Below, in pieces: positions 4,569 to 22,842 of a stretch of 64,000 nt of DNA. The position numbers were made by a program, and so were the translations under genes. This DNA is from Methanotrichaceae archaeon (GTDB lineage: Archaea > Halobacteriota > Methanosarcinia > Methanotrichales > Methanotrichaceae): assembly GCA_963803145.1 (NCBI GenBank), contig CAWDLW010000008.1, positions 480,001 to 544,000 on the forward strand. Direction: 5' to 3'. Each line of letters begins with the position of its first letter. The stretch's first letter is position 1. The notes below the pieces were generated by a model, which saw only the letters and a list, made by a program, of their open reading frames with translations, was not told the origin of the DNA and did not search any database.

Positions 4569-4733
4569 TCAATCTCACCACTTATATTTCTGGAATCTTC
4601 TTCCGGAGAAGAGTTAGGAGCAGCCCCACGGGCGTTGTAGGGCGCTAGTAAAGCCTTTAGCATTAGCCCCAGATAGGAAATGTAGTATCTTAAATTAGCT
4701 GCAGCCCCCAAACGTAAAATCAGGATGGTTCTA
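4569..4733. repeat. Repeat R copy 0 (degenerate)
   Basis: tcaatctcacca...gagttaggagcagccccacgggcgttgtagggcgctagtaaagcc...ttagccccaga aligns to the R consensus. Confidence 0.7.
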
Positions 4734-4838
4734 TAATATCATCTTGGATTGAATTCTCTTGAAGAACGTTATTTTGTGAATTAATAAATATTTAGGAACT
4801 AAGAGCAGAAAAATATACAATAAAAAAATTAGTGAAGC

Positions 4839-5678
4839 TTAAAGCTGCATAAATATCGCTATAGCATCATTCATCTTCTTGAGCCCAAGTAGCGCATTCA
4901 TCTTATTTATTTGTGCCTGGCTGTTAGACGGATCGATTGTTAGCGTGGCATTAAACGCCTGTATAGCATCAGCGTAATTTCCGGCTGCCATTAGAGCGAA
5001 ACCTTCAGCGTTATACGCCTGTGTATAGTTTCGATCAATCTTCAGAACCTGATCGAAGTTCTGCACTGCCTTGGCGGATTCACCTGCGGCCATAAGTGAG
5101 ACACCTTGCTTATAAAGGGCATCTTTACTCTTCGGATCAAGAGCTAGGACCTGATTGTATCTCACGATGGACTCGTTGTACCTTCCTAATTTCTGAAGAA
5201 GATTGCCCTCCCTTTGCCAATTGGCCTTATTATTTGGTGCTAGCATCGTTGTTTCGTTTGCTGCTGTATAAGCGTTGGAATAATCCTTGAGTGCATTATA
5301 ATCAGCATATAAGCCTGACCAGGCATCCGCATTGTTTTTATCGATCGTCGCGGCCTTGCTGTATGATTGCACAGATGCATTATAATTTTTCAAAGCCCTC
5401 TGAGCATCGCCCATATGTACCCAGCCATCTGTGTAGCTGGCATTTTGAGCAACTGCCTTACTAAAGTACTCAAGGGCACCTGTATAGTTGTTGGCTGCAT
5501 ACAGCTTACCTCCCTTCCAATCAAAGTAGTCTGCCTCCTGAGCAAAACAGATAGCACTCAAGATACAAAAGCACACCATTACACCTAATATTTTCAAGAT
5601 AACTCCTCCTGAACCTCCTATAGGGTCCAAGTGTTTGGATAATATTGAATGCATATTAAGCCTTCGGCTATAACTCAA
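4839..5678 (-). CDS. Secreted TPR-repeat protein
   Basis: Signal-like segment (CILSAICFA) then TPR repeats; paralog of 26241-27002 and 27046-27804; true start probably downstream of the ORF start. Confidence 0.85.
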   Translation of the reverse strand: MSYSRRLNMHSILSKHLDPIGGSGGVILKILGVMVCFCILSAICFAQEADYFDWKGGKLYAANNYTGALEYFSKAVAQNASYTDGWVHMGDAQRALKNYNASVQSYSKAATIDKNNADAWSGLYADYNALKDYSNAYTAANETTMLAPNNKANWQREGNLLQKLGRYNESIVRYNQVLALDPKSKDALYKQGVSLMAAGESAKAVQNFDQVLKIDRNYTQAYNAEGFALMAAGNYADAIQAFNATLTIDPSNSQAQINKMNALLGLKKMNDAIAIFMQL

Positions 5679-5890
5679 TTGCTAACCTTATAAGCCATTA
5701 TGACCCGAGTATATTGTCAAAGTTATCCGCCTCCTGAGCTATACAGATAGCGCTCAGGAGGAAAAGCATATAATTACGCATAACATCTTTAGGACTTACC
5801 CTCTACAATTTAGCCATGTTCTTTATAGCCCCTAAGCTTAACATCAATGATATTAGCCCATTATGCAACACAGCATCCTGGAGTGAAATC

Positions 5891-6262
5891 TCACGATATA
5901 TGCCTTAGCGGTCTATTCGCTATTGTAAAACTTCGTCCATTTTCGCCGATCATTTTCAGAGCTTTAGCAGCACTTAACCGCACGTTGCTATCTTTATCTT
6001 TTGCGAGCACCTGGAGCAGTGGCATTCTAGCTTTTGTATCTACAATCTCCCCAAGAGCATCAGCAGATCCACCTCGAACTGCGCTATTATCGTTTTGGAG
6101 TGCCTGAATCAACGGATCTATTGCAGGTTTTCCAATTCCTGCGAGAGCTTTGTAGCTGCTATTCGAACATCGCTATCGTTATCCCCTAGCACCCGAATTA
6201 AAGGATCGATAGCTCTAATATCTTGTATATTCCCAAGCGAATGTGCAGCCTCCGCTCGCACT
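5891..6262 (-). pseudogene. HEAT/PBS-repeat protein C-terminal fragment
   Basis: Nearly identical to the C-terminus of 25013-26158 (IQALQN.NSAV.GG.ADALGEI); frameshifted, N-terminus absent. Confidence 0.8.
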
Positions 6263-6489
6263 TTATTAAACAGCTGAGTTATGCTTATCTTATATCAGCT
6301 AGTTAGTTTTTCTTTGTGCCTTGCTATGAAAAACATTCGATTATCGCTATCTAGCGACCATTTTTCATTCTTCGGGCACGATTCAACCCTTACCTGAGAA
6401 TCATAGTGTTTTGTGTCTTCGTGGTGATCGTCCGTCGTTTATTTAACTGCCAAGCCAACAGCATTTCACCATTTAGCCTTGGCACAACC

Positions 6490-7233
6490 TCAAAGAGAGA
6501 AACCCTCCAGATTTATCTCATCCAACCGGACCGACCCATTGACCGCCTTGGCGCTCATCTCATATTTCCCGGATGGAAATCCCGTCATATTAACGCCAAT
6601 GTTGAAGTTGCCGTTCACGATCACCTTTTTGATCAGCGTCATGGTCAGGTTCACCCTGGAAGCATTCTCCGCAGCATCACCGAAGATTTTGATCTGATAG
6701 CCCCCAGGCGATAGCATATCGTTAGTAGTAGTCGCTGTGCCGTTACTACCTGCCTCGACCTGCGAGGTGACCCATATTCTCGTGAATTCAGGCTTAAAGA
6801 CCATGCTCGAGTTCTGATAGCTTCCCTGATCCATCTGTTCACCAATGTTCAGGTTCTTCACCTTGCTTGCAGATACTGCAAAGTTGTTGGGCTTTCCAGG
6901 AATGTAGACGCCGGGGAGAGTATAGCTATAGCCGCTTTTGCCTGGGTTTGAGGTCACATTGAAGCCCTCGATGGGAGGAATGTGGATGCCGACAAGGTCG
7001 TAGCTGTAGCTGCCCTCGAATACCGGGGTTGTATCCTGGATTGTGAAGTTTAGGAGAAGCTCGCCTGAGCCTACTCCCGAGATCCTCATCTCGCCGGGTG
7101 TGAGTCCCACGCATGAGAGCAGGATGCAAATTACTGCCAATGACCTCAGGATTGTAGGGCGCTGCCTGCTTTTCAAAGCTGTCGCTTGCCGGCTGTTGCG
7201 ATCATCTTCGTTTCGTCTCCATATTCCCTTCAA
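6490..7233 (-). CDS. Secreted hypothetical protein (paralog of 23832-24590)
   Basis: Signal-like segment LAVICILLSCVG; long near-identical stretches with 23832-24590; 5' end abuts repeat R1. Confidence 0.75.
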   Translation of the reverse strand: MKGIWRRNEDDRNSRQATALKSRQRPTILRSLAVICILLSCVGLTPGEMRISGVGSGELLLNFTIQDTTPVFEGSYSYDLVGIHIPPIEGFNVTSNPGKSGYSYTLPGVYIPGKPNNFAVSASKVKNLNIGEQMDQGSYQNSSMVFKPEFTRIWVTSQVEAGSNGTATTTNDMLSPGGYQIKIFGDAAENASRVNLTMTLIKKVIVNGNFNIGVNMTGFPSGKYEMSAKAVNGSVRLDEINLEGFSL

Positions 7234-7340
7234 CCTTATCGCCCTTATTTCAGGAAACCTTCCCCCAGCGAGGGGCTAGGGGTAGCCCGTCCGGCGACTG
7301 AGGATGCTTGGAAACCCCTAGTTATAGCCCCAGAAGATAA
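7230..7340. repeat. Repeat R copy 1
   Basis: tcaaccttatcgcc...ccttcccccagcgaggggctaggggtagcccgtccggcgactgaggatgc...gttatagccccaga. Confidence 0.9.
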
Positions 7341-7374
7341 CCTTACAGTGCCAATCTGAAAAGCTAAGAAATAC

Positions 7375-7609
7375 TCATGTTGCTGAGAGCCAATCCTCAC
7401 GAGAGATTCCGCCTTCGTGGAGGATCTGGAGTAACAGCTTCACACCGATGTCTTTCCCATGGTGTGGATTTGGGATGCTGACATACACCCGCCCTTCGGC
7501 CAGCTCTCTGACCATATAGGCATGATCCGACCCAGGATAAGGTCCCTGAAAACCTAACTTCCTGAGCCTTCGGATAAGCTCATTTCTGGTAACAGGAAGA
7601 AGCCTGAGA
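7375..7609 (-). pseudogene. hicA: HicA toxin lacking an obvious start codon
   Basis: Manual translation LRLLPVTRNELIRRLRKLGFQGPYPGSDHAYMV...IPNPHHGKDIGVKLLLQILHEGGISREDWLSAT*; no in-frame start codon found just upstream. Confidence 0.75.
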
Positions 7610-7856
7610 CTTTGGCTATCGGCTCCGTAGAGACATCAATAGTGATGCCATCTATAGCGGGAACTGTATCACCCATCTTAAGCCGGAGAGCTATCCAACC
7701 TTCGATAACCCCAATGAGGTCCTCGCGGCATTCCTCGATTGTGTCACCTATAGCTATCACACCCCGAAGGCCATCTACAGTGGCCATATAGGTGCCGTCC
7801 TCAAGCGTCTCATATTTAGCATGTCTTAAAGCTGCCTGAATGTATTCTGCAAACAT
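7554..7856 (-). CDS. hicB: HicB antitoxin (runs on into hicA)
   Basis: EDGTYMATVDGLRGVIAIGDTIEECREDL HicB signature. Confidence 0.85.
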   Translation of the reverse strand: MFAEYIQAALRHAKYETLEDGTYMATVDGLRGVIAIGDTIEECREDLIGVIEGWIALRLKMGDTVPAIDGITIDVSTEPIAKVSGFFLLPEMSLSEGSGS

Positions 7857-8315
7857 ATCAAGATCTTATTGTACCTCGAAGGGATTTAACATTGATTGCC
7901 CTTTATGAATTGTGGTTGATAGTTCGTCGTTTGTTTAGTTGTTACGCCAGTAGCCTTTCACAGCACGGGTATAAAGAGATAATTCCTCACTAATATGTTA
8001 GTTAAATTCGTTCGTCTTTGTGCCTTCGTGGTGATCATCCGTCTTTGTTTATATATAATCCAATGTTTTTCGTCGTTCTTGGTGTCTTTGTGCCTTTGTG
8101 TTTGGCTGTCACTGAACGCTCACCACAAAGACACGAAGGCACAAAGAACTGAATTGGGAGCTTGAATTTATTGGGCGATTAGTCAAAAGAAAGACTATAA
8201 TTCCTGCAAGAGCTTTTGTGGCTGCCTTATGAACACAGGTATCATTATCTTCTGGTGCCCTTTCCGGCAAAGTCGACCTCAATTTAAAGATCCGGTATCT
8301 TTGCGATTACGAATT

Positions 8316-8409
8316 CACTACAGAGACTCAAAGGCGCAGAGAGACTTTAACATTATCTGGACTCTCTCCAAGCGTTTCGTTCTCTGTGTCTCCGTGCCTC
8401 TGTGGTGAG
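8316..8409. repeat. Palindromic CACAGAG(G/A)CACAGAG-type element
   Basis: cactacagagactcaaaggcgcagaga ... tctctgtgtctccgtgcctctgtggtg; relatives at 8080-8146, 8474-8606, 15140-15232, 16495-16572, 21711-21738. Confidence 0.7.
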
Positions 8410-8580
8410 CTTGTTCGTTCTGCTGTTGATTAAAGTAGGCTGTATGTTTGATAACTGAGCTAACGACTTCTCATCACAAAGGCACAAAGACACAAAGGAC
8501 GCGAGAAAGAACTATTATCTTGACATTTTGTCTTGGCTATGTTCCTTTCTTCCAGCTAAATCGTCGTCTTTGTGAGTTCT

Positions 8581-8766
8581 TTGTGCCCTTTGCGTCTTCG
8601 TAGTGATCGTTCGCTGTTTGCTTATAATTCTGAATGGTTGTCATTCCATACGGCCGGAAATCACTAATCCAGTTCCAATCAACCTTATCGCCTATATCCA
8701 GAACCTTCCCCCGGATAGGGGGTAGGGGCTAGGGGCAAACTGCCAGGGCGATTGAGCGCGCTATTA
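8581..8766. repeat. Repeat R copy 2 (left arm plus core, right arm missing)
   Basis: tcaaccttatcgcc at 8679, ccttcccccggataggggg, ggcgattgagcgcgcta; directly abuts the PIN gene stop codon. Confidence 0.85.
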
Positions 8767-8767
8767 T

Positions 8768-9196
8768 TCAATCGTCTATGTCCAGAATCTCTGCGATAGC
8801 TTTCGTGATACCCCATACCTTGATTATCTCTGCTTCCCGAATCGTCCTGAAATGGTTATCGTTGGTTATCAAGATGGCACCAGTCTCAAGACAAGTGGCA
8901 GCATGAACTATATCGGCATACTGGCCTTCAGGAAAGAACGGCCGGCAGGCCTCTAGGCTCTTATGTGAGGGATCTACAAGGCGAGTTCTGTTATGAATGA
9001 GCTCATAGAGATGATAGAAACCAAGGAATCTATGAATATACTTCTCATATTCAAGCAGGAGCTCATCGTTCACAAACAGCTCTGCATCGCTCAGCAATAG
9101 AGCCGTAAGTAGATCCGTGCTTCTAGTCCAGCCGCTCTTTACAGCTGCAATGACCAGATTGTTATCTAGAACGAACCTCGAATCTCTTCTTAGCAA
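8768..9196 (-). CDS. PIN-domain (VapC-like) toxin
   Basis: FVLDNN, E, D..H and ITNDNHF PIN motifs; overlaps an AbrB gene. Confidence 0.85.
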   Translation of the reverse strand: MLRRDSRFVLDNNLVIAAVKSGWTRSTDLLTALLLSDAELFVNDELLLEYEKYIHRFLGFYHLYELIHNRTRLVDPSHKSLEACRPFFPEGQYADIVHAATCLETGAILITNDNHFRTIREAEIIKVWGITKAIAEILDIDD

Positions 9197-9425
9197 GACG
9201 ATTGCTTTCCTCCTCGATATCTTGCTCGATCTTGCCGTGATCCATGCCTTTTGCCTTTTCTATGGCCTCCTCAAGCATAGATCTTAGATCAATCTTCTTG
9301 ACGATGAATGTGCCTTCTCCCAAAGAGTCTATAGCGAACTCGTCTCCCTCCTTCAGATTCGCCTTCCGTCTGAGATCGCTCGGCAGCAGGATTCTCCCTT
9401 TATCATCTAGCTTTGTAACTGGCAT
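9162..9425 (-). CDS. AbrB/MazE-family antitoxin
   Basis: KLDDKGRILLPSDLRRKANLKEGD AbrB signature. Confidence 0.9.
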   Translation of the reverse strand: MPVTKLDDKGRILLPSDLRRKANLKEGDEFAIDSLGEGTFIVKKIDLRSMLEEAIEKAKGMDHGKIEQDIEEESNRLAKKRFEVRSR

Positions 9426-9620
9426 ATGAGATAATCACCATTTCTCCCACATATGGACTTTATGGTATAAGAAGATATCAGCATGAGATATACATGAAGA
9501 TAATTTCATTCATCTTTGTGGCTGATAGTTCGTTGTTTAGTTGTTATGCCAATTACCTTTCATAATACAGGTATAATGAAATGATTCCTCTCCAATATGT
9601 TATTTAAATTCGCGCACCTT

Positions 9621-9860
9621 TGTGCCTCTGTGCCTTCGTGGTGATCATCCGTCTTTGTTTATAATCACAGCCAGACATCCTCTTCCATACAGGCAAGAAT
9701 CTTGTCCCCGTCAACCTTATTGCCCTTATTTCCGGAAAACTTCCCCCAGCGAGGGGTTATGGGCAACCCGTGGGTTGCGGGTAGCCCGTCCGGCGATTGA
9801 GGACGCCAGTAAAACCGCTAGTAGTAGACCCAAACGAGAAAGCCAGCGCAATTCTGTAAT
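9621..9860. repeat. Repeat R copy 3 (near-full unit)
   Basis: Left arm gtgccttcgtggtgatcatccg...cagccagacatcctcttccatacaggcaagaat, core from 9711, right arm cccaaacgagaaag. Confidence 0.9.
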
Positions 9861-9861
9861 T

Positions 9862-9970
9862 TTAGAAAATCTTTACATGTATTACCAAAAGCTGGATGTT
9901 CGAAAGCCGAATATAGAAATATATTAGTATCGATGAAAATTCTCTCGCCTGGTGGGACTTCTGATAGCAT
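9862..9970 (-). pseudogene. PIN/VapC toxin truncated at repeat R3
   Basis: Manual translation MLSEVPPGERIFIDTNIFLYSAFEHPAFGNTCKDFLK, then runs into R3. Confidence 0.75.
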
Positions 9971-10158
9971 TAGTCCCATATCTCCATATCTATGATCTCG
10001 TCTGCGAGCTCTTTGGGGATCTTCATCTTGCCGTGAAATTCTTCAACGGGATTCTTTTTAACTTCTATTTCGACCTCTTCACCTTCCTTCAAGTTCAGAT
10101 CTCCAAGCGGCCTTAATATATTGCATTCGTAGACGGCTCTCACTTTCATGAAAATCAC
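9970..10158 (-). CDS. AF2212-like (DUF104) antitoxin
   Basis: VRAVYE..ILRPL..LNLKEGEEVEIEV; translationally coupled to the truncated PIN gene. Confidence 0.85.
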   Translation of the reverse strand: MIFMKVRAVYECNILRPLGDLNLKEGEEVEIEVKKNPVEEFHGKMKIPKELADEIIDMEIWD

Positions 10159-10228
10159 GCTATAAATTATCGCCCTGGTAGTTCTTAAAGCATTTGGCAG
10201 TATTCAGAAATCAATCATCAAGTCCAGT

Positions 10229-10324
10229 TCGACCTTGAAGCATATGTTCCTGGAACCTTTTGCCGTCGAGGGGTTAGGGACAGCCCGCACGGGCGTTGGA
10301 GCGCGCTAGTAAAACCATTATTTT
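10229..10324. repeat. Repeat R copy 4, left part (interrupted by IS110)
   Basis: gaggggttagggacagcccgcacgggcgttggagcgcgctagtaaaaccatta; resumes at 11858 with ttttagcctcagaaga. Confidence 0.85.
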
Positions 10325-10362
10325 CCCATGAAAAACCTTCCTCAATTAAAAGAAATGGTGTG

Positions 10363-11622
10363 CTATCCACCCCCTACCGAATGTCTATTCTTCAAGTGAT
10401 AAAAGGCGTCTACGATAGCAGCCACTCCATCCTTTAATCGCTCATTTTTGGATAGATAGAGGAGGTCCCTTTTGACTGGTTTTGATGCAGCTGTAGTGCA
10501 GTTGTTCTCTTGATATAGCTCTTGATTAATCAACAGATGATAAATTATTGTGATTAATTTCCGTGCTAAAGCAACGACCGCTACATTGTAGCTCTTTCTG
10601 GCCGACAATCTATGGAAGTACCTTGAGAGCTTGTTCTTGTTATTTCTCATCTTAGCTATCACTTGAGCTATCTCGACAAGAATAGTTCTTAGACTCTTGG
10701 ACCCCTGTTTCGTAATACCACATTGCTTCTTTTTCCCTGCAGATTCGTGTAGTCCAGGAACCAGTCCACACCATTTGGCGATTTGTTCTGGGGTTTGGAA
10801 ATCGCGATAGTCACCGATTTCTGCCAAGATGGTCGACCCTGATCTAAAACTTATTCCTGGAATTGACATAACTATTGCCAGATCTTTAGCGCTTTTCTGA
10901 AATCTGCTAAGCACTTCAAGACTTGTTTTATCTATCTTCTTTTTCAGAAGATCAAGGAGCTCTAGATTATCCTTAACAAGCATTCTCGAAGTATCATCAA
11001 GACCGTTTGCAAGAGCCGCTTTGATGACGTCTCGCTTTTTCTTGATCTTCTTTGAAGTGATTCTGTCCAGGATCGAGTCTGCATCCTTGCCTTCAACCAG
11101 GCCATCCAAGATAATCCTGCCTGATTTACCAAAGATGTCTGAAATACAAGAACTCAGCTTTATGCCGCAAAGTGCTAGATACTTATGAACTCGATTCCTA
11201 AGCTGAGTTTGAGTCTTTATATATCCTGATCTGGCACGGGTCATCATTCTGAGGGCTCTATCCTCATTGGAAAAGACTCTTGATCTCTTGATTTTGCCAT
11301 CCAAGCAGTTACCTGCAATCCTCTTAGCGTCATGAGAATCCGACTTATCCCCTACAAGTCCTTTGACCATCCATGGATTTGCTACAATTGTATCAATCGA
11401 TGGACTCAGGCAATCGTAGACTGGAAACCAGTAAACACCTGTAGCTTCAAATGCTACTTGCTCGCAATTATTGGCTATGAGCCAATTCCTGAATCTCTCT
11501 AGCTCCGAACGAGTCGTGCCAAACTGTTCCTGGATTTCAGTCCCATCTGCATCTTCGATCGTGGCTACTATGAGATCTTTATGGACATCTGCTCCGCAAA
11601 CTCTATTTCTTCGTTTGCCCAT
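10363..11622 (-). CDS. IS110-family DEDD recombinase/transposase
   Basis: GADVHK, FEATG, KSDSHDA, SIPGI, GLVPGLHESAG (catalytic Ser), VALARKL. Confidence 0.95.
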   Translation of the reverse strand: MGKRRNRVCGADVHKDLIVATIEDADGTEIQEQFGTTRSELERFRNWLIANNCEQVAFEATGVYWFPVYDCLSPSIDTIVANPWMVKGLVGDKSDSHDAKRIAGNCLDGKIKRSRVFSNEDRALRMMTRARSGYIKTQTQLRNRVHKYLALCGIKLSSCISDIFGKSGRIILDGLVEGKDADSILDRITSKKIKKKRDVIKAALANGLDDTSRMLVKDNLELLDLLKKKIDKTSLEVLSRFQKSAKDLAIVMSIPGISFRSGSTILAEIGDYRDFQTPEQIAKWCGLVPGLHESAGKKKQCGITKQGSKSLRTILVEIAQVIAKMRNNKNKLSRYFHRLSARKSYNVAVVALARKLITIIYHLLINQELYQENNCTTAASKPVKRDLLYLSKNERLKDGVAAIVDAFYHLKNRHSVGGG

Positions 11623-11635
11623 ATATGTCGCTATC

Positions 11636-11788
11636 CTGATATGGGCAGATGATTAAGATTAATCCCTTATAGGGGGTAATTTCCCATGCGCGTTCAACGA
11701 CGCAGCCCCGTATTCACGGGATTATTGGCCAGTTTTAGCCGCGAGATCATGATCTCAAAAATAAAGCTGCCTTCACTGCCCATATCAG
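11636..11788 (-). ncRNA. Candidate IS110 bridge RNA
   Basis: 13-bp perfect IR (11636-11648 / 11776-11788) encloses the target match agttttagcc, the hairpin gagatc-at-gatctc, aaaaataa and the donor match tttcccatg. Confidence 0.6.
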
Positions 11789-11857
11789 ACTAATCATAGT
11801 TGGCCATGAATGTGAGGTTTTTCATCCGCCACGTATGACCCTTAAGGATCATGGGCG

Positions 11858-11930
11858 TTTTAGCCTCAGAAGAAGTGTTGGCTTTGAATTATATAAGCAG
11901 GCCCAAACGAGAAAGTGATAGTTATTCTTG
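11858..11930. repeat. Repeat R copy 4, right part
   Basis: ttttagcctcagaagaagtg...gcaggcccaaacgagaaag matches the right arms of R3, R5 and R9. Confidence 0.8.
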
Positions 11931-11936
11931 ATTACT

Positions 11937-12461
11937 TCAAGGCATGCCCAAGCGTTCCTTAATAGATTCAATATCTTTCTGCATTTGCCTGAACTGTATT
12001 GAAAACCCTGGCTGAAGCTCATCTCTCATGCCCTTCATCTCTTCCAAGACTTGGGGAATTGCATCCGTATTTCCCTTTACTGCCTTTAGGTCACCTTTCA
12101 TCTCCTTCAGATCATCTTTCATCTCAAGCAGAATCGGTATAGCCTTATTCATTTGTGTTGCGGAATTTATGTTGGCGAACTGCCAGAGGGGCATGACATC
12201 GCCGGTGAACTCCTCAGAGTTTATATTATCTACCCTGGCAAGCTGAGGACGTTCTTTCATGGCTAAGTTATAGAGCCTCGTGACTCTTTGTTCATCGCCT
12301 TCAATAAGAGCTATGACAACCTGCTTCCCATTCTCTTCATCATTGTAGACTTCAAAGCCTCTGAGAGCTAAACGCATAGCTAACTCCGTAAGATAGGGCC
12401 TATATCCTACATTGTGGACTTGAGAGCCGGTTATCGTGACCTTGAGTTTCATTTTCCTCAA
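11937..12461 (-). CDS. Acylphosphatase-domain protein with C-terminal coiled coil
   Basis: GSQVHNVGYR...GFEVYN; heptad-rich C-terminus. Confidence 0.85.
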   Translation of the reverse strand: MRKMKLKVTITGSQVHNVGYRPYLTELAMRLALRGFEVYNDEENGKQVVIALIEGDEQRVTRLYNLAMKERPQLARVDNINSEEFTGDVMPLWQFANINSATQMNKAIPILLEMKDDLKEMKGDLKAVKGNTDAIPQVLEEMKGMRDELQPGFSIQFRQMQKDIESIKERLGMP

Positions 12462-12529: not shown

Positions 12530-12770
12530 GGTTGGTAGTTCGTCGTTTGTTTACGATTACGGATATCCTCTTTCACAAAGGAGGAAATCGATAATCTAGT
12601 CCCCATCAACCTTATCGCCTCTATTTACCAAATCCTTCCCCCGAAGAGGGGTTAGGGGTAGCCCGTCCGGCGATTGAGGACGCTAGGAAACCATTAGTGT
12701 TAGCCCCAGAAGAAAGTGCAGTTTTTAGAATTAGAAGGAGCTCCCAATGCGAAGTCAGAGCAGTTCGGGA
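12530..12770. repeat. Repeat R copy 5
   Basis: Core from 12606: tcaaccttatcgcc...ccttcccccgaagaggggttaggggtagcccgtccggcgattgaggacgctagg...tgttagccccaga. Confidence 0.9.
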
Positions 12771-13133: not shown

Positions 13134-13529
13134 TTAATTCTGCATCTGAAAATGTTTATCGTTAGTCCATATAGGACAGCGCAGTTGCATAGCCAGGGCG
13201 AGAATTGGCGCATCTTTTTCATCGATTTTCTTCATGACCTCAAAAGCATCTTTCATCATGGGGAGGTACAGATCACGGGGCACAACTTGAATAGCTTTCA
13301 AAATGAAACTCTTTGCATATTCGAACGATAGAGACTGAGAACTTTTCTTCCTTTTGGCCTCGATGTAAGCAAGGTAGCCATTTATCTCAATCATCCCGTA
13401 TTCGAGGAAGTACAAATTAAAATATCCCGATTTTATTAACCTTGCATTTATAGAATGGTCTTTGAGGAGAGCCGCAATTAGAATATTGGTATCAACTACA
13501 AGCCCAGCTTCTTCTTCTCTTCCAGCCAT
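13134..13529 (-). CDS. PIN-domain (VapC-like) toxin, C-terminus apparently frameshifted
   Basis: VVDTNILIAAL, DEKDAPILALA, IWTNDKHF; the expected tail IKVYT lies in another frame. Confidence 0.85.
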   Translation of the reverse strand: MAGREEEAGLVVDTNILIAALLKDHSINARLIKSGYFNLYFLEYGMIEINGYLAYIEAKRKKSSQSLSFEYAKSFILKAIQVVPRDLYLPMMKDAFEVMKKIDEKDAPILALAMQLRCPIWTNDKHFQMQN

Positions 13530-13705
13530 ATTCTCTCACGCACTTCCTCCAAGCCCTCCAGATCGGACTCGTTGAGATCAAGCTCCTCTATTGCCCTTTC
13601 AAAGAGCACCCATCTAGCCTCTTCCTCTTTTACCAGCTCATCGATTTTCTTTTTGAGAGGCTTTAAGGGAATACCTTCAGGAACCTCTACTTCGATAGTG
13701 CCCAC
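13496..13705 (-). CDS. Putative antitoxin of the adjacent PIN toxin
   Basis: Small acidic protein overlapping the PIN gene start. Confidence 0.7.
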   Translation of the reverse strand: MGTIEVEVPEGIPLKPLKKKIDELVKEEEARWVLFERAIEELDLNESDLEGLEEVRERIWLEEKKKLGL

Positions 13706-13779: not shown

Positions 13780-13960
13780 TTTGTGCCTTTGCGTCTTCGT
13801 GGTGATCATTCGGCCCCGCTGTTTATGCAGCCGGACATCCCCTTCCATATAGGCAGAACCTTGTCCCGTCAACCTTATCGCCTGCGTGTTCAAACTTCCC
13901 CAGCGAGGGGTTAGGGGAGCCCGCGGGCGAGAGCGGCTAGTAAACCATTAGTTTTAGCAG
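13780..13960. repeat. Repeat R copy 6
   Basis: Left arm plus core from 13869, ending taaaccattagttttagc. Confidence 0.85.
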
Positions 13961-14029
13961 AAAACGTGTGGGTTTCAATTGTTTTGTAAAGTTATCAGTT
14001 ATTGACTTATTATATCGAAAACCGCCCGC

Positions 14030-16199: not shown

Positions 16200-16352
16200 A
16201 CTCAATGGATCTATTGAGGTTTCCAATTTCTGCGAGAGCTCTTGTAGCCGCAGTTCGAACATCGCTGTCATTATCCCCTAGTGCATGAATCAATGGATCA
16301 AAGCCGCAGTATCTTGCAAATTCCTGAGCGAATATGCAGCCTCCGTTCGCAC
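16200..16352 (-). pseudogene. HEAT-repeat gene fragment
   Basis: Matches 6105-6262 and about 25222-25380, with the same breakpoint as the copy near 6260. Confidence 0.7.
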
Positions 16353-16934
16353 TTTACTAGACAGCTGAGTTATGCTTATCTTATATCAGCCAGTTAGTTC
16401 GTCTTTGTGCCTTTGTGTCTTCGTGGTGATCATCTGTCGTTTATAATTGGCTCTTCGCTGTTTCGTGTGAGTAAGGTAAAGCACTTATGACTTAACCACA
16501 GAGGCACAGAGACAAGAGAGAAAAAAAATAATAATGTTAAAATCCCTCTGTACCTCCGTGTCTCTGTGGTGAACGTACTCTAAGCTCCACTCGAAGGCAC
16601 AAAGTCTCTCAGGCCTATCTTGAATCTCCCCTATTGAATTGTAATCTCTTGATGAATGCAATCTTATGACTTATCTATCAATAACCAGACATGCGAATAA
16701 TATCCAAAAAGTTCCAGAGCCGCTACCTTCCAATATTTCCGCCAAACCCTCTTATCATCCTCTCAATTCAGATTATGGCGTCCTCAAACCCGGGGCTTTG
16801 ATACCACATTGTTTGGATTCAGCTGAATTACGTTTCAATCATCCTGCTCTGGCCAGATGATAACAATCCTCAAGGGCTTAAAAGCTTCCCCTGCCTATGT
16901 GATCAATTCCTTATTGCTGTCAATCCTTCTGGAT

Positions 16935-17190
16935 TGTGGTTGATCGTTCGCTGTTTGCATGTAGTTCGAGATGATTGTCCGTCCATGCGGCCGGAAATCG
17001 CCAGCTCCCATCAACCTTATCGCCTAAATCTAGAGCCTTCCCCCAGCGAGGGGCTAGGGGTAGCCCGTCCGGCGATTGAGGACGCTAGTAAAACCGCTAG
17101 TTTTACCTCCAGAAGAAAGTGTAGTCTTTTATAAATTATAATAGCAGATCCAAATGCGAATTTAGAACGGTTCTGGAATGTACGTTCTTG
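16935..17190. repeat. Repeat R copy 7
   Basis: Core from 17011: ccttcccccagcgaggggctaggggtagcccgtccggcgattgaggacgctagtaaaaccgctagtttta. Confidence 0.9.
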
Positions 17191-17272: not shown

Positions 17273-17605
17273 CTACAGATATGGATATAGACTATTTATT
17301 CTTTTAAGCAGCTCGACAGTATGATCTTTCTGAATGATCTCTGTGGTCTTACCATATACCTCATCATGATGAGCCACATACAAAAACACAATGCAATTAC
17401 CTATAATCATATAAGCAATAACAAAGGGATCAACATGAACCCCTCTCACGCCCTTCAGGCCATAGCTTTTAGGTTCACCCATCTCAGGATTGATTAGAAT
17501 TTGACCAAGTTTATTGATCAATCTGTCTTTAAGGGCTTTATCCTTCTTGGTCAGTTTTGAAAATTGCTTATCAAATTCAGGAACCCTGTGATATCTATAA
17601 GCCAT
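17273..17605 (-). CDS. RelE/ParE-family toxin
   Basis: FDKQFSKL...ILINPEMGEP..GLKGVRGVHV..FVIAY...AHHDEVY; likely start ATG at 17605. Confidence 0.8.
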   Translation of the reverse strand: MAYRYHRVPEFDKQFSKLTKKDKALKDRLINKLGQILINPEMGEPKSYGLKGVRGVHVDPFVIAYMIIGNCIVFLYVAHHDEVYGKTTEIIQKDHTVELLKRINSLYPYL

Positions 17606-17615
17606 AAAAGAGGGG

Positions 17616-17789
17616 TTAGAGGTCACTAAGAGAATTCAAAAACTCTTCTTTGCTATCATAGGTTTTGCCTTTTCCAGCCTTAAATTCCTTGATACCTCTG
17701 ATGACTCCTGCTGCAAACTCATTAGAAAGGAGGGCTTCAATATCTTCTGATTCTTCTTTCTTTGGAGCAGTATGAGCTACCTTTCCCAT
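17616..17789 (-). CDS. Antitoxin partner of RelE (57 aa, absent from the ORF track)
   Basis: Manual translation MGKVAHTAPKKEESEDIEALLSNEFAAGVIRGIKEFKAGKGKTYDSKEEFLNSLSDL*. Confidence 0.7.
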   Translation of the reverse strand: MGKVAHTAPKKEESEDIEALLSNEFAAGVIRGIKEFKAGKGKTYDSKEEFLNSLSDL

Positions 17790-17940
17790 TTAAATTAAGC
17801 CTCCATCGCAATATTGCGTGATAGGGATATTTAAGATTTCGCCCAAAGGATATTTTCTGTCTAGCTGGATACCATCCGGAAGGAAATTTCGGACTAATTA
17901 TGCGGAGGGATCTACAAGGCGAGTTCTGTTATGAATGAGC

Positions 17941-18060: not shown

Positions 18061-18289
18061 TGGCCTCCATTTCAACGGTTTGTTCAATGACAGTATTATC
18101 TGTGGGAACTTCTTCACCATGGGCAATAAGCGTCTCCACGTAACCTTTGATGGCATCCCTGACCATACACAGAGCTTCATCGATGGTCTTTCCAAAGGTT
18201 ACGCATCCTGGTAGAGTTGGAACCCATACGGTGTAAACCTCATCATCAGGCTCCCACCTAAGCATGACATGATACTTCAGTACATTCAT
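18053..18289 (-). CDS. hicB: HicB antitoxin
   Basis: YTVWVPTLPGCVTFGKTIDEAL..V.DAI. Confidence 0.9.
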   Translation of the reverse strand: MNVLKYHVMLRWEPDDEVYTVWVPTLPGCVTFGKTIDEALCMVRDAIKGYVETLIAHGEEVPTDNTVIEQTVEMEANA

Positions 18290-18507
18290 CGGTATCTAAT
18301 GTGCTCCTTCAATATATCTATTCTCTGCTACTATTGATTGAGGACGACTCGACGAGAGGTGCCCCGAATCCGACGATCGAAAAGATCAGAGAATCCACAA
18401 ACCTGATCCCAAGAGGATGCAATAGAAAGGAAACGCCCACAGCATAAAGCACCAGCACAGCCAGTGTATGGAAGTCGCCGTGATGGATGGGCGAGCCGTA
18501 GACAAGC

Positions 18508-18688
18508 ATGTGTTCTAGGTGTGGTCTAATAGTCAAAAAGGATCTCTCTGAAAGAATCCATAGCTGCTCGGAATGTGGCTTGTCTATGGATAGAGATCTG
18601 AATGCAGCAATCAACATTCTGAGATTGGGGATGCAATCTCTTCGCAAAAGCGACAGAAGCCCCGCATTTTAGGGCGGGGAGCGTTCAC
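18508..18688 (+). mobile_element. tnpB 3' fragment with IS605 right end (omega-RNA region)
   Basis: CSRCG...HSCSECGLSMDRDLNAAINI, hairpin ccccgc-attttagg-gcgggg, terminal TCAC at 18688. Confidence 0.85.
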
Positions 18689-18700
18689 AGATAACGAAAT

Positions 18701-19075
18701 TCAGATCTCCATTCGCTTGAACTCTTCAAGCTCTTCGGGCGTAAAATATTCATGCCATGCTTTTGGCTTGACTATGAGCACTGCCCTACCGTTCTTTTCC
18801 GCTTTTTCTACGTGCACCATCCCTGCGCGCTCAAGCCTTCGTGCAGCAGTATAAGTCTTGCCCGTCGTCCAGCCCATCTCTTTCGCCAACTGATATATGC
18901 TGTTCCCCGGGATCGCCTCTATTTTGTCGTAAAGCTCCAGGTCAGTATCGACGCCTTTTTCTTTCACGGCTTCAATAGCATGCTGGATATTTCTTCCGCG
19001 CATGCTATCATAACTGTCTTGGAATCTATTTAAAGATGGAAGCAAATCTGCGCAAGTTCCAAGGCCGTATTTCAT
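18701..19075 (-). CDS. Winged-helix HTH protein
   Basis: PGNSIYQLAKEMGWTTGKTYTAARRLERAGMV. Confidence 0.75.
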   Translation of the reverse strand: MKYGLGTCADLLPSLNRFQDSYDSMRGRNIQHAIEAVKEKGVDTDLELYDKIEAIPGNSIYQLAKEMGWTTGKTYTAARRLERAGMVHVEKAEKNGRAVLIVKPKAWHEYFTPEELEEFKRMEI

Positions 19076-19373
19076 GAAAAAGTTCCAGGAAAATAAGCAT
19101 CAAATGAAACAGGCTGAAAAAACGCTGAAATCGCTTCTCGCGCGTGGATACATATATCCACATCCGACTCGGGACGAGATAACATACCAAATGACTCAGA
19201 TGGGATGGGAAGAATGCCGGAAGATGAAAGAGCAGGCTCTTTCAGAACTTTAGACCTTGATTGATACTGCATTTTACAAGGCGTTCTTCAGACGTGCGTT
19301 TAATATGCTCCCTGGGTTGGTAATTCTTGATAAAATTTTGAGATTTAGAATTCATTTTTAATTGAACGAAGGT

Positions 19374-19937
19374 CTATACATCAAATTGCGTATAGTTATA
19401 AGCATAAGTTCTATTCGAATCATTCAGCCTCTGGCATATCAGCATCCCGGAATATGATGATCCTCTGCTCAGAACCAGATCCCCTAGGCGATAATATCTG
19501 CTTGCTCCATGCCTCCGTATGGTCTTGCCGTCGAAATTTAAGGCCATCCTGTATTCTCCAATAGAAAAGTTCCTGTGATCTATGGACCAGGCCACCTCTT
19601 TGCCGTTGCTATCGAGCAGATATCCGTTCAAGCTGTACTCGCCGGGAGCAAACACATCAACTACGGCCTCGATTGTGAGATATTCATACAGCCCATCATG
19701 ATCTACATCCACTCCATGATCTGTGAAGTTTCCCGTAAGAGATGCTAGGCCAGCTCCTGGATCTTGTCCGCATGCATTCAAGCTGAGGCATATTGCCAAA
19801 AGGAGCGAAAGGAGCAAAGGAAACAGAGAAGGCATAGTTGGCGGCTCATCTAATGGTTTATCAGAGGAAATGCCTGAGGATTTATCCGATGTGCTCATGA
19901 TTGTATAAAAGAAAGTGAAGACATGAAATGCCTTCAT
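19374..19937 (-). CDS. Secreted protein with a DxDxDG motif
   Basis: Signal peptide from MPSLFPLLL (probable true start); DVDHDGLYEYL; collapsed paralog at 24616-24885. Confidence 0.75.
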   Translation of the reverse strand: MKAFHVFTFFYTIMSTSDKSSGISSDKPLDEPPTMPSLFPLLLSLLLAICLSLNACGQDPGAGLASLTGNFTDHGVDVDHDGLYEYLTIEAVVDVFAPGEYSLNGYLLDSNGKEVAWSIDHRNFSIGEYRMALNFDGKTIRRHGASRYYRLGDLVLSRGSSYSGMLICQRLNDSNRTYAYNYTQFDV

Positions 19938-20528
19938 TTAGGGCGGCGTTGGTTCGTTCTGTTCAAACTTACCGTTATTGGAGCAGAAAGTGGTTCCTCC
20001 CCCTGTGGGCTTATAAATCGGCGGGCTGGTTATATTGCCCTGCTTGTCTACATTCAAGGTCAACGACTCTCCTGTTCCAAGATTATGCAATACTTCCTGG
20101 CTGCTTCCATCTGTGTTATAAGTTACTTCCAAGCCGTCATTGTTTCGAGTATTCGCGTAGGATTCGGACTGTATTTGCTGGGTGTTAGGATCGTAAATTG
20201 TTGTCAATATTTCATTATTGTTTCCTAGCATAACGATGCTTTTGACCAGATTGCCATTGGAATCCCTATATTCAAGAAGCCTGTTGCCGGCATTATCTTT
20301 GTAATCGGAAACCGTTAAATTTCCCGCATCGGTTTTGACAATATATGATGTCGATGTAGCTCCTGAACTAGTTTTAATAAATGTTCGCTCCTGTGCAAGG
20401 ACCTCTTTCTCTGACTTCAGCTGTTCCCTCGTTCCCATCAGACTGTTTTGGTCTGCAGAGACAATAGTTGCGCCTAAGATACAGGTGAGTATAACGAGAA
20501 TTAATGCTGCGCTAATAATTTTCCTCAT
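19938..20528 (-). CDS. Secreted hypothetical protein
   Basis: Signal peptide MRKIISAALILVILTCILG; Asn/Thr/Gly-rich. Confidence 0.7.
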   Translation of the reverse strand: MRKIISAALILVILTCILGATIVSADQNSLMGTREQLKSEKEVLAQERTFIKTSSGATSTSYIVKTDAGNLTVSDYKDNAGNRLLEYRDSNGNLVKSIVMLGNNNEILTTIYDPNTQQIQSESYANTRNNDGLEVTYNTDGSSQEVLHNLGTGESLTLNVDKQGNITSPPIYKPTGGGTTFCSNNGKFEQNEPTPP

Positions 20529-20643
20529 CTTTTCCCTCCATTACAGTATTTTCTTCATGAAATGGCTCATACGCCGTTATAATTATTATCATCTTATCGC
20601 ATGATATTCGCTGAATCCGCAGCATATTATCATGCAGTTCCAG

Positions 20644-20876
20644 TCAACCTTATCGCCTGTTTTTCAGAAGCCTTCCCCCGGAGAGGGGTCAGGGGCAGCC
20701 CGTCCGGCGATTGAGGACGCCACTCCCCCTTGAGGGGGTTGGGGGGTGGATATTCTTTCAAGCCGCTATCCGCAGGCGGAATCCGTAAGTGACAGCATCG
20801 CCAATCAATTGAGCCATTAAGCAGCCTCCCAGGGCGTTTGGGAGCGCTAGAAAGCTATTAGTTTTAGCCCTAAAAA
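20644..20876. repeat. Repeat R copy 8 with an internal insertion and a duplicated second hairpin
   Basis: Core to 20721, about 100 bp of extra sequence, then gcagcctcccagggcgtttgggagcgctag...ttagttttagccc. Confidence 0.85.
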
Positions 20877-20897
20877 TTTTTGCTCCAGCTGAATTCA

Positions 20898-21491
20898 TCA
20901 AGGCATCCCCAAACGCTCTTTTATTGCTGCAATGTCCTTTTGCATCCGATGAATTTGAATCGAAAATCCAGGCTGTAGCTCCTCTTTCATCCCCTTAATC
21001 TCTTCCAGGATATGAGGTATTGCGCCCGTGTTCGCTTTTATAGCATCAGTGTTCGCTTTGATAGCTGGCAGGATATCAGTGTTCGCTTTGATAGCTGGCA
21101 GGATATCAGTGTTCGCTTTGATGGCTGGCAGGATATCAGTGTTCGCTTTGATGGCTGGCAGCTCATCAAGACGTTGAATGCCCTTAGCCAACTGCGCGTT
21201 CATGTTCACAATTGAAGTTTTGGTGATATCTGGCACTCGACCCTCAAAATTCTCAGATTTGATATTTGTAACCTGTGCTTTTTGGGGCCTTTTGGCCTTT
21301 ACTGCTTCCATGAACTCCCTGAACTGCTCATCATCGGCTTCGAGCCTGGCGATAACTGCCTGTTCGCCCCCTATAACATCATTTTTTACCCCAAATCTCT
21401 CAATATCGCAGTCGTCAGCTAACGCGATCAGAAATGGCCTGTAGCCAACATCGTGAACTTTGGGTCCGCTGATTATGATTTTAATCTTCAC
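20898..21491 (-). CDS. Acylphosphatase-domain protein with a 10-aa tandem-repeat tail
   Basis: GPKVHDVGYR...FGVKN; LPAIKANTDI repeats; C-terminus nearly identical to 11937-12461. Confidence 0.85.
   Translation of the reverse strand: MKIKIIISGPKVHDVGYRPFLIALADDCDIERFGVKNDVIGGEQAVIARLEADDEQFREFMEAVKAKRPQKAQVTNIKSENFEGRVPDITKTSIVNMNAQLAKGIQRLDELPAIKANTDILPAIKANTDILPAIKANTDILPAIKANTDAIKANTGAIPHILEEIKGMKEELQPGFSIQIHRMQKDIAAIKERLGMP
21045..21161. repeat. 30-bp coding tandem repeat, about 4 copies
   Basis: atcagtgttcgctttgat(a/g)gctggcaggat. Confidence 0.95.
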
Positions 21492-21609
21492 CCTTCACCC
21501 TCCTATCAGGCACAAAGCTCATCAAAAGATCATGCCAGGTTCGATTGCCCTTAACCTTTTCCAGCTCTTCAGCTTCCCAATCTTCGAGCGTGACATGGAC
21601 GTGTTTCAT
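21481..21609 (-). CDS. Small ribbon-helix-helix-like protein (42 aa)
   Basis: MKHVHVTLEDWEAEELEKVKGNRTWHDLLMSF...; overlaps the acylphosphatase start. Confidence 0.55.
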   Translation of the reverse strand: MKHVHVTLEDWEAEELEKVKGNRTWHDLLMSFVPDRRVKGED

Positions 21610-22294
21610 TGTATCATAGTATGTATGATAGTATTTATAGGGCTCCTCTCTATTTCCAGTGGGTATACTCAAGAGGGGTCTGAGCCTACCAGGAAAACGA
21701 TTAAGAATCGCTCTGTGTCTCCGTGCCTCAGTGGTGAATTTCGTTTTGTCTAGCAATAGCCGAACGAACCAAGAATTGGATGCTCAAATAACAATCAACA
21801 TCCCATCGCCAAGCATACAAAGAATATTCAAGAAGTCCCGGAGCCTCCAAATTCCAACATCTCCGCCAAACCCTCTTATCACCATTCAATTCAGATTATG
21901 GCGCACTCAAATCTATAGCCCGGAATGAGCCCGCTTTTGATCATGCCTTTTCTGGATTCCTCTTCCGGATTCAGCCTATGCCTTTCGATCATCAAGCTCT
22001 CTGCCATAAGCAGGTGCTAACAAGCCTTCAGGGATTAAAAACTTACCGCTGTGTTAATTATATCAATTCCTTATTGCTGCCATTCGTCCTGGACCTTTGT
22101 TATCTCCCTACACAGCTTCAGTCCATCCCCGACAAGCTGATATGTCATCTCTCCCCTGGCAGGATGCATCTGTACATATCCAAGTAAAGCCTTTTTTACC
22201 CCATTTCCTCCTGCGGGAACTCTTCTGGCAAAGGCTCTCTCCGGTACATGGCGCCGATTTGCTGAGATGGGCGGCTCTGCAGATGCTCAATCAA

Positions 22295-22532
22295 TTATGA
22301 GTTATACGAACGTATAAGCGAACATCCCGGTCTGAGCGCATACGAATACGCAAAGGTTTCCGGCTGGTCGATTGGGAGAACTCACTCCTCCATCAAAAGG
22401 CTGGAGAGTCAAGCTTATCGCCAGGCCTAAGCCGTGGCAGGAGTTCTTCACAAAGGAAGAGCTGGAAGAGATGAAACAGTCAGATTTCTGGGATGAGCTA
22501 GAGACTATAGTGACGAGCGATAAAGAGTTGTA
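22295..22532 (+). pseudogene. Remnant of a winged-HTH gene homologous to 18701-19075
   Basis: YELYERISEHPGLSAYEYAKVSGWSIGRTHSSIKRLE...PKPWQEFFTKEELEEM. Confidence 0.65.
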
Positions 22533-22577
22533 AACGGCCGATCTCTGCTCGTCTTTTATCGTCTAGATTCATCTTTT

Positions 22578-22842
22578 TACCTTTGTAGTGATCAGCCGTC
22601 GTTTGTTTATAATTACAGCCAGACACCCTCTTCCATATAGGCGAGAATCCTTGTCCAGTAAACCTTATCGCCTGCATTTCCAGAAACCTTCCCCCGAAGA
22701 GGGGTTAGGGGCAGCCCGCCCGGGCGTTTGAGTGCGCTAGAGCGCTGTTATTGTTAGCCCGAAAAGGAAGTTTAGTCTCTTGAATTAGAAGCAGCCCCAA
22801 ACGCAAAGTCAGAGCAGTTCTGGATTGTCCCGCTCTTACGAG
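22578..22842. repeat. Repeat R copy 9 (full unit)
   Basis: Left arm, core from 22660, right arm gcagccccaaacgcaaagtcagagcagttctgga. Confidence 0.9.

Follow-up and report, generated by a model that had tools for sequence, protein, structure and literature searches.

We report that the repeat family designated here as R, which punctuates a 64,000-nt stretch of the genome of a methanogenic Methanotrichaceae archaeon (hereafter the window; C8:480001-544000 of the assembly G000, i.e., contig CAWDLW010000008.1 of GCA_963803145.1), is best regarded as a lineage-specific, modular, hairpin-bearing intergenic repeat with local amplification and homology-driven shuffling of gene modules, and not as an integron site. 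We give this reading a probability of roughly 0.58. R is an archaeal variant of, and comparable in kind to, the mosaic repeats represented by repetitive extragenic palindromic (REP) sequences, bacterial interspersed mosaic elements (BIMEs), and BOX elements. Variable left and right modules are joined to an R core of ~50-90 nt with two hairpins to give forms of ~150-250 nt, and ~90 copies are scattered between genes in either orientation. In the proposed scenario, R would have been amplified locally in hypervariable regions, mainly the flanks of a glycan island, together with small gene modules, namely toxin-antitoxin pairs, acylphosphatase-like genes, and gene fragments. R and its companion modules (module E, see below) would serve as homology for ordinary recombination that would delete, duplicate, and re-order the modules with their orientation kept, giving the look of a cassette array. 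Separately, an insertion sequence (IS) of the IS110 family uses a fixed sequence in R as its insertion target. A preliminary description of the window, made from the sequence alone, had proposed an integron-like cassette system. The clustering, co-orientation, and toxin-antitoxin-rich cargo behind that proposal stood in our analysis, and module order was seen to differ between two species, while the dispersal of R, the search for an integrase, the predicted fold, and the absence of a fixed junction spoke against it.

Dispersal of R in the genome and in the family

The G000 assembly comprises 4.13 Mb in 51 contigs with a G+C content of 45%. A profile built from the ten window copies yielded 122 matches in G000 with E < 1, and 91 of them, found on ~27 contigs and on both strands, scored at least 40 bits. 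None of the 91 copies overlapped a gene by more than 40 nt, indicating that the family is intergenic (genes were called by our simple codon-score caller; 3,933 calls, 79% coverage). Sixty of the 91 copies reside on many contigs outside the arrays described below. As to the genes neighboring these 60 copies, 17 copies were in the same direction as both neighbors, 19 were opposite to both, 13 were between convergent genes, 10 were between divergent genes, and a single copy had no neighbor. With 17 sense and 19 antisense copies in co-directional spacers, the orientation of the non-array copies is random to genes. The preliminary description had itself named genome-wide dispersal in random orientation as evidence against a cassette system, and this is what two thirds of the copies (60/91) display. 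The genes adjoining the non-array copies were slightly smaller than the genome median (193 vs. 224 aa; p = 0.017), and a link between R and toxin-antitoxin genes was not established genome-wide beyond the arrays and the HepT/MNT family (see below).

When one genome of each species was scanned for a 24-nt core pattern, 55 matches were obtained, all of them within two records of Methanotrichaceae archaeon. Among the 61 genomes of the family searched, the three of the genus that includes G000 (G000, G004, and G019) each contained at least 44-51 matches, while any match was found in 7 of the other 58. Five of these seven had 2-9 matches each in a second search. In the other genera, it was mostly the 52-nt core (model positions 43-94) that matched, and a GC-rich inverted repeat replaces the AT-rich left module of the genus of G000, as judged by eye. 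The neighbors of R in these genera are unrelated housekeeping and small genes. Altogether, R is an old element of the whole family, and its expansion, by about ten-fold, took place in one genus.

Two side observations concern the genomes themselves. In G015, which represents another genus, the R core abuts a 55-nt stretch that by eye resembles the left end of the IS110-family element in reverse (loci L098 and L101); this stretch may be an IS fragment or mark another insertion point. G000 bears 6.77% contamination and, at 4.13 Mb, exceeds the 1.6-3.6 Mb of the other family genomes, and some of its contigs may be foreign to the organism.

Sequence and fold of R

The consensus of R was derived from a MAFFT alignment of 72 full copies with 300-nt flanks. 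Conservation extends over ~240 nt with a sharp right edge and a gradually fading left edge. Many full copies are preceded by a half-copy ~140 nt upstream, and truncated forms are recurrent, including short forms that begin at model position 43. Module E, a second repeat module, is found behind R in the window array and in either orientation to R elsewhere in the genome.

The well-supported helix of R is a 5-bp stem (CGNNC/GNNCG) closing a 9-nt loop (TCARTCGCC), which was recovered from 119 copies of six genera aligned to the model. The stem pair 59-77 appeared as CG in 77 copies and UA in 29, and the pair 60-76 as GC in 61, CG in 25, and AU in 14. Over 18 named pairs, both-side changes filled 98 cells against 38.6 ± 5.0 in shuffled alignments (none of 500 reached 98) and 6-23 in slid controls, albeit these counts overstate the independent events as the R copies are related to each other. 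Five compensatory types of the stem were found across genomes, namely TCC/GGA, CGC/GCG, CCC/GGG, CAC/GTG, and TGC/GCA. The second hairpin, CCCC/GGGG, is nearly invariant. Summed by us over the rows for both hairpins, 22 G-U pairs on the sense strand stand against 43 A-C combinations, which correspond to G-U on the opposite strand. This hints, weakly, that if either strand folds, it is the opposite one.

Beyond the short hairpins, little structure was predicted. RNAalifold proposed short hairpins only, and when four copies were folded as single-stranded DNA (ssDNA), none of the eight strands folded better than its shuffled versions (z = -0.91 to +0.28). No match at the gathering score was found in the window with Rfam 15; the best matches below threshold scored 20.5 bits (cut-off 40) and 16.6 bits (cut-off 45), with E ~0.1, and were at the level of chance. 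The outer inverted repeat that had been described earlier (TCAACCTTATCGCC / GGCGATTGA) occurs in the copies of the window, and it is neither conserved nor covarying genome-wide. We rejected an attC-like outer stem formed by TCAATCGCC pairing with GGCGATAAGGTTGA, as the 3' side varies freely across the genome without covariation. Likewise, a C/D-box small RNA in the right arm (TGATGA ... CTGA), sought by eye, was rejected as its boxes vary among copies. A TATA-like A/T-rich box (AATTYAAGAG) lies in the left extension, ~25 nt upstream of GGGGCTAA (by eye).

Arrays of R and the glycan island

R is clustered in G000. Forty-one gaps between copies were of 6 kb or less, while in 2,000 simulations of random placement the average was 10.8 and the highest count 22. 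Pairs within 6 kb shared the same orientation in 34 cases and were opposite in 7 (p = 2.5e-5), and the corresponding numbers beyond 20 kb were 9 and 11. Thus, the clustering, which the preliminary description proposed to check, and the local co-orientation are real, and 31 of the 91 copies fall into four co-oriented clusters. These are the window array (C8:484.5-502.6 kb; minus strand; ten copies) and three arrays of seven copies each at C8:432-440 kb (plus strand), C15:5-21 kb, and C23:47-57 kb.

The two arrays on C8 point at each other across a ~40-kb stretch, which is a cell-surface glycan island. Its genes encode glycosyltransferases of family 2 and family 1/4, epimerases, UDP-GlcNAc 2-epimerase, a flippase-type protein, sugar-nucleotide enzymes, and a carbamoyltransferase, and several IS elements are found there as well. 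In the stretch just left of the window (C8:441-480 kb; L093 and L094), transcription in both halves runs inward, to the middle of the stretch. The left C8 array consists of R followed by small modules encoding HicA, HicB, UPF0175 with a DUF3368-like protein, DUF4258/DUF2283, and acylphosphatases.

The stem types and module copies point to amplification on the spot. All nine copies of the subtype TCC/GGA belong to the two arrays flanking the island, and none was detected among the dispersed copies or in the other two arrays. This restriction argues for local amplification or conversion. A HepT/MNT-like module (so labeled from homology to a Pfam-annotated pair at L065:5337-5956) occurs in 17 copies in G000 with nucleotide identities of 74-88%, for instance at C8:123539-124382, C15:6437-7004, and C43:8871-9626. 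In 8 of the 17, R abuts the toxin gene at its 3' end with an unvarying layout, and in two sets of four the homology covers R plus the module over ~1 kb. In the left C8 array (L064), R with an N-terminal fragment of an epimerase gene appears twice (63 and 118 aa; 3313-3504 and 4328-4684), followed by R with the full-length 309-aa epimerase (5323-6252). These fragments resemble the remains of insertions or duplications that happened repeatedly.

Changes of the arrays between relatives and in the metagenome

G019 possesses syntenic arrays with the same conserved flanks. One array has six copies on the plus strand (C1:106.8-134.5 kb) and the other has ten on the minus strand (173.9-200.5 kb), and the central island of G019 is largely different in sequence from that of G000. 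Approximately ten gene modules are common to the arrays of G019 and the window, and they appear in another order with the same orientation. Thus, the module order does differ between two species with syntenic arrays, a point that the preliminary description had singled out for checking. In one junction inspected closely, R is cut after GGCTAT, in its middle rather than at its end, and continues into the leader of the PIN_2 module. The other module homologies stop 6-250 nt from R. When individual sites were compared, R was present in G019 and absent in G000 at L071, L081, and L085, and orthologous copies were found in both genomes at L073 and L080.

Metagenome contigs of two runs (X1 and X4) from one sediment sample skip 1,610 bp of the window, 8016-9625; these contigs have lengths of 859 and 324 nt and few mismatches. 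The skipped module contains a VapBC-like pair, the R copy 8652-8803, and ~520 nt, and the junction coincides with the edge of module E's two 32-nt direct repeats (8016-8047 and 9626-9657). Within 1-40 kb of the window, module E has eight copies, at 6392, 7999, 8571, 9609, 13770, 16394, 22556, and 27855, of which the one at 16394-16442 (direct-repeat family D5) served as the reference. In most of the read-derived joints between R copies, the sides are short (21-63 nt); these joints probably belong to other copies or organisms and were left out, as were the 'go-back' joints 16425/16427 within module E, which carry extra letters. The few events available therefore place breakpoints at the edge of module E, within R, and 6-250 nt from R, and the idea of one fixed breakpoint in R was not borne out.

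Searches for a recombinase

No candidate enzyme was tied to the arrays. The integron integrase model TIGR02249 had 18 matches in G000, the best of which reached 48.8 bits (cut-off 265), with none located at C8:425-510 kb; clusters of attC sites lacking integron integrases (CALINs) lack IntI by definition. No tyrosine recombinase (PF00589) was found in or beside the four arrays of G000 or in the syntenic region of G019 (C1:95-215 kb). Tyrosine recombinases are encoded elsewhere in both genomes; the ones closest to the arrays are at C8:76.9 kb (G000) and C1:269 kb (G019). A search for serine recombinases gave none in G000 or G019. The matches to the Y1 (HUH) transposase domain PF01797 were confined to a 617-bp IS200-type element encoding a Y1 transposase only, which is present in three identical copies (C13:56914-57530, C15:365000, and C33:17366) and one decayed copy in the glycan island (C8:469441-469810). 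None of these copies is flanked by R, their end hairpins bear no relation to it, and the element was not matched by the R profile; on these grounds, we rejected an origin of R from the IS200-type element. The linked tyrosine recombinase or HUH transposase for which the preliminary description recommended a search was thus not encountered.

R has no attC architecture either. Its ends, CCTCAAT ... GGTTGAYG, are by eye a near-miss; the 3' arm varies without covariation, and the long-hairpin folding was lacking in all of the eight strands mentioned above. The alternative in the preliminary description, a gene-carrying MITE (miniature inverted-repeat transposable element), received no support, as there are no terminal inverted repeats of at least 10 nt (none in three R copies examined with their flanks) and no consistent target duplication in three presence/absence comparisons.

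An IS110-family element inserted in R

One of the window copies of R is split by an IS110-family element on the minus strand (10322-11859; ends approximate to 2 nt). Its transposase (10363-11622; 419 aa) has the Pfam domains DEDD_Tnp_IS110 and Transposase_20, and the element is located inside R at ...GGGGCTAA^ACTAA.... G000 harbors seven intact copies of this IS with protein identities of 97-100% and two interrupted ones (on C15 and C25). In seven IS copies, both junctions are at one point of R (...CTTCTGGGGCTAA^[IS]^ACTAAYGG...); the eighth, at a contig end, has its right junction at the same point, and the ninth is in a look-alike sequence, GGGCTAA^A. This fixed insertion point indicates that R serves as a target of the IS110-family element. 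The 5' non-coding region of the IS contains GGCTAAAACT, a 10-mer that reproduces the target over the insertion point without mismatch, as would be expected of a guide RNA; an identity of 10 nt was reached in 48 of 5,000 shuffles. By analogy with IS110 elements that are guided by bridge RNAs, the targeting of R is probably RNA-guided. The IS was found at 89-100% identity in G000 only; its best relatives were at 43% in G019 and, as a fragment, at 75% in G004. The absence of close relatives of the IS from these two genomes means that it exploits R rather than explaining R. R as a derivative of IS110 ends was rejected, as R is interrupted by the IS and resumes beyond it, on either side.

Weighing the explanations

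We infer homology-driven shuffling from one indel within a population and one comparison between species, and a number of observations weigh against it. The conserved core and loop and the compensatory changes in the stem imply that something recognizes the hairpin, since a passive substrate of homologous recombination would not need such conservation. The co-orientation of 7-10 copies in four arrays and the reordering without inversion are also expected from a directional site-specific system. Several truncated copies of R end within ~2 nt of GCTAT^AAGG, which could be a preferred breakpoint. The three presence/absence comparisons of G019 with G000, based on diverged intergenic alignments inspected by eye, gave no consistent termini or target duplication, the ends of the segments differing among sites. 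Furthermore, a single junction is well supported at the population level, the four metagenome runs all derive from a single sample that may itself have yielded the assembly, and the statistics on orientation rest on our simple codon-score gene caller.

The first three of these points, along with a toxin-antitoxin-rich cargo of small genes matching that reported for archaeal integron cassettes (PMC9668308), would suit a site-specific cassette system, in which the R hairpin is the folded-ssDNA site of an archaeal enzyme encoded elsewhere that excises and integrates modules. The approximately two-fold excess of mismatches compatible with folding of the opposite strand (43 vs. 22) fits such a system as well. 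In its specific form, the conserved hairpin with the loop TCARTCGCC, read on the strand opposite the cargo, would be the target of a structure-specific enzyme whose gene lies apart from the arrays and which captures, excises, and re-orders toxin-antitoxin and other small modules at the two island flanks, the dispersed copies being secondary sites or relics. Nevertheless, the dispersed majority (60/91) is random to genes, no integron integrase above the cut-off is present in G000, tyrosine recombinases are absent near the arrays of G000 and their syntenic counterparts in G019, and none of the serine type was found in the two genomes. In addition, the strands fold no better than shuffles and the outer arms do not covary, the intervals contain 1 to ~8 genes, and the junctions are scattered over the edge of module E, the middle of R, and positions 6-250 nt away. 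We therefore consider the system improbable, both in general and in the specific form. R may instead be a non-autonomous mobile element of the kind of a REP doublet forming a hairpin (REPIN) or a hairpin-type MITE, moved in trans as ssDNA by an HUH/Y1-like or other enzyme, with the arrays as landing zones. The high, genus-specific copy number, the exclusively intergenic location, the sharp right boundary, and the presence/absence sites L071, L081, and L085 are in line with mobility, and stem subfamilies with compensatory changes fit the amplification of master copies. The absence of terminal inverted repeats, the inconsistent ends without target duplications in the three comparisons, and the fuzzy left boundary with a mosaic build are at odds with it. 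The sole Y1 transposases belong to the 617-bp IS200-type element with end hairpins unrelated to R, and the confinement of TCC/GGA to one locus speaks for local duplication over transposition. This possibility is unlikely in our estimation, though not negligible.

Two further explanations need to be considered. The covarying hairpin with its conserved loop, the three-hairpin layout, which other genera retain with another first-hairpin sequence (by eye), and the TATA-like box upstream of GGGGCTAA (by eye) would be expected if R were a functional RNA. As such, R would be either the gene of a small RNA or a cis-acting structure in untranslated regions that influences the stability or expression of its neighbors, and it would be transcribed from its own or a neighboring promoter. 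We nonetheless hold this to be rather doubtful; Rfam offered two chance-level matches at E ~0.1, RNAalifold found little beyond two short hairpins, G-U pairs on the sense strand were not in excess over A-C (22 vs. 43), and R is oriented at random to neighbors that are functionally unrelated. A recombinase of the IS110 family guided by RNA to GGCTAA^AACT in every R could also drive recombination between R copies and the shuffling of modules. Its fixed insertion point, the guide-like 10-mer in its non-coding region, and the partial R near 27947 that breaks exactly after GGGGCTAA would agree with this idea. It is nevertheless very improbable; the IS is present at 89-100% identity in G000 only while G019 and G004 remain rich in R and its arrays, most of the junctions examined are off the IS site, and the module variants are already seen in relatives free of the IS. 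Altogether, we favor the view of R as a modular intergenic repeat that is amplified locally and shuffled by homology.

Copies of R and their neighbors in the window

All of the ten co-oriented copies of R reported earlier were confirmed, with their cores, delineated by the direct-repeat families D2, D4, D9, and D10, at 4569, 7230, 8679, 9711, 10229, 12606, 13869, 17011, 20644, and 22660. An 18-nt core motif matched nine times in the window with up to three mismatches, against 0.04 matches expected, and none of 100 shuffles attained nine. The covariance model recovered 10 of 10 copies on the minus strand and, weakly, a partial copy at 36216-36301 (E = 0.0051). This and a second partial copy at ~27855-27975 correspond to the two that had been placed near 36220 and 27840, and the start-to-start distances of 518-3,631 bp agree with the spacing of 0.5-3.6 kb given before. 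The copies indeed follow minus-strand genes as described. The distance to the stop codons, given before as 2-100 bp for most copies, is ~18-175 nt from core to stop; the distance shrinks if the less conserved left extension of R is counted. Each interval between R copies contains 1 to ~8 genes rather than one gene per repeat.

The copies, all on the minus strand, are as follows in the order of their positions, with those from 7203 onward being supported by the covariance model unless noted otherwise. The divergent copy at 4542-4690 (116 bits with the covariance model; also found by nhmmer) is downstream of a TPR gene (4839-5678). The copy at 7203-7344, of the subtype TCC/GGA, is downstream of a 46-aa open reading frame (ORF; 7375-7515), the stop of which is at 7375 as previously stated and which is HicA-like by eye only, and of a UPF0150/HicB-like gene (7554-7856). 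The copy at 8652-8803 overlaps the 3' end of a PIN gene (8768-9196), which forms the VapBC-like pair with 9162-9425. The copy at 9684-9850 has an 18-nt internal insertion and is downstream of an AF2212-like gene (9970-10158). The copy split by the IS110-family element has its right part at 10202-10347 and its left extension at ~11860-11936, directly after the stop of an acylphosphatase gene. The top-scoring copy (160.9 bits; TCC/GGA) at 12579-12726 is upstream of the acylphosphatase gene 11937-12461, and the copy at 13842-13980 is upstream of a PIN_2 toxin-antitoxin pair (13134-13705; Pfam). Another copy of the subtype TCC/GGA, at 16982-17129, is downstream of a ParE-type gene (17273-17626; Pfam). 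The copy at 20622-20722 is a short form (model positions 43-143) with the left module replaced, downstream of an acylphosphatase gene (20898-21491), and that at 22632-22780 is downstream of another (22867-23427). In the partial copy at 27855-27975, which was assigned by eye with the family D5, the core is absent and the left part ending in GGGGCTAA is joined straight to the right flank modules. The partial copy at 36216-36301 retains the left modules only, is cut just before the TCAATCGCC loop, and is downstream of the gene 36498-38570.

Matches to Pfam domains backed the cargo named in the preliminary description. They comprise PIN with MazE-type, HicA/HicB, ParE/RelE-type, UPF0150, and AF2212-like proteins, three paralogues with an acylphosphatase domain, and TPR and HEAT proteins. 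The acylphosphatase-like neighbors had been considered as an HUH-like enzyme; we rejected this, as their alignment shows a conserved V-G-Y-R motif, which presumably resembles the acylphosphatase signature, and a repeat-rich tail, and they are regarded as cargo. Two of these genes contain tandem repeats of 30-nt and 21-nt units (21015-21164 and 23003-23105). Two 21-nt units, 42 nt in total, are skipped at 23018-23061 in metagenome contigs of three runs, indicating that the repeat number varies in the population. Segmental duplicates with 87-90% identity are found inside and just past the array (5905-7212 vs. 23796-25263, and 16220-16413), involving HEAT-repeat genes and genes of 247/252 aa (families D3, D6, D7, D17, and D20). 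A 120-aa fragment of a YdjM-type membrane protein (4078-4440) adjoins the first R of the array, and a full-length YdjM-type gene (311 aa; 35255-36190) adjoins the partial copy 36216-36301, which is another duplicate of a gene fragment at R. A TnpB gene (IS605 OrfB/Cas12f-like) at 31661-32824 and another at C15:12433-13578 have equal Pfam bit scores in two domains and near-equal scores in the third, and are probably copies of one element.

Comparison with known systems and significance

To our knowledge, structured intergenic repeats are well studied in bacteria, while few have been described in methanogenic archaea, and our full-text literature searches found no description of the R family. 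R combines a covarying hairpin across an archaeal family with a landing site of an IS110-family element, and it marks two convergent arrays of toxin-antitoxin modules at a glycan island. It is thus a tractable case for the movement of toxin-antitoxin genes without an obvious vehicle and for the building of the flanks of variable surface-glycan islands in archaea. If a dedicated enzyme exists, R would represent a second, non-integron route to gene-cassette arrays.

The REP/BIME and REPIN families of Proteobacteria are present in high copy number, strictly extragenic, and mosaic with other motifs; they form small G+C-rich hairpins with compensatory stem variation between subfamilies, and are targeted by IS110-family elements. 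R shares these features, as the 91 copies, none of which is in a gene, bear a hairpin with compensatory changes. No cognate REP-associated tyrosine transposase (RAYT) flanked by R was found among the PF01797 matches in G000. R differs from REP/BIME in being longer (core of 50-90 nt; 150-250 nt as a whole), with two hairpins and a conserved 9-nt loop, and in being archaeal and building long co-oriented arrays with gene modules between the copies. BOX of Streptococcus pneumoniae, enterobacterial repetitive intergenic consensus (ERIC) sequences, and Correia elements consist of separable boxes in variable forms, are dispersed between genes, and can fold, and in these respects R, compared by description only, is similar to them. 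They have terminal inverted repeats or a defined order of boxes, whereas R is without terminal inverted repeats of at least 10 nt.

According to PMC9668308, toxin-antitoxin systems account for 10.5% of the archaeal cassette proteins with a functional prediction, and most of the archaeal integron arrays are without an integrase. The attC arrays and CALINs resemble the R arrays in being co-oriented, in carrying small toxin-antitoxin-rich cargo that mostly looks promoter-less, in contents that vary between relatives, and in a repeat that is homogeneous within a lineage. The R arrays differ from them in the lack of IntI, the single dispersed copies in random orientation, the lack of a long imperfect palindrome (z ~0), several genes per interval, and junctions that are not at one nucleotide. 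As for the IS, IS110 elements are reported to insert into REP sequences under RNA guidance. The REP-targeting elements IS621, ISPpu9, and ISPpu10 are similar to the window IS in using a fixed site in a multicopy intergenic repeat, with the 10-mer in the non-coding region of the window IS matching its target; the window IS is distinguished from them by its archaeal host, another target repeat, and a guide RNA that is putative.

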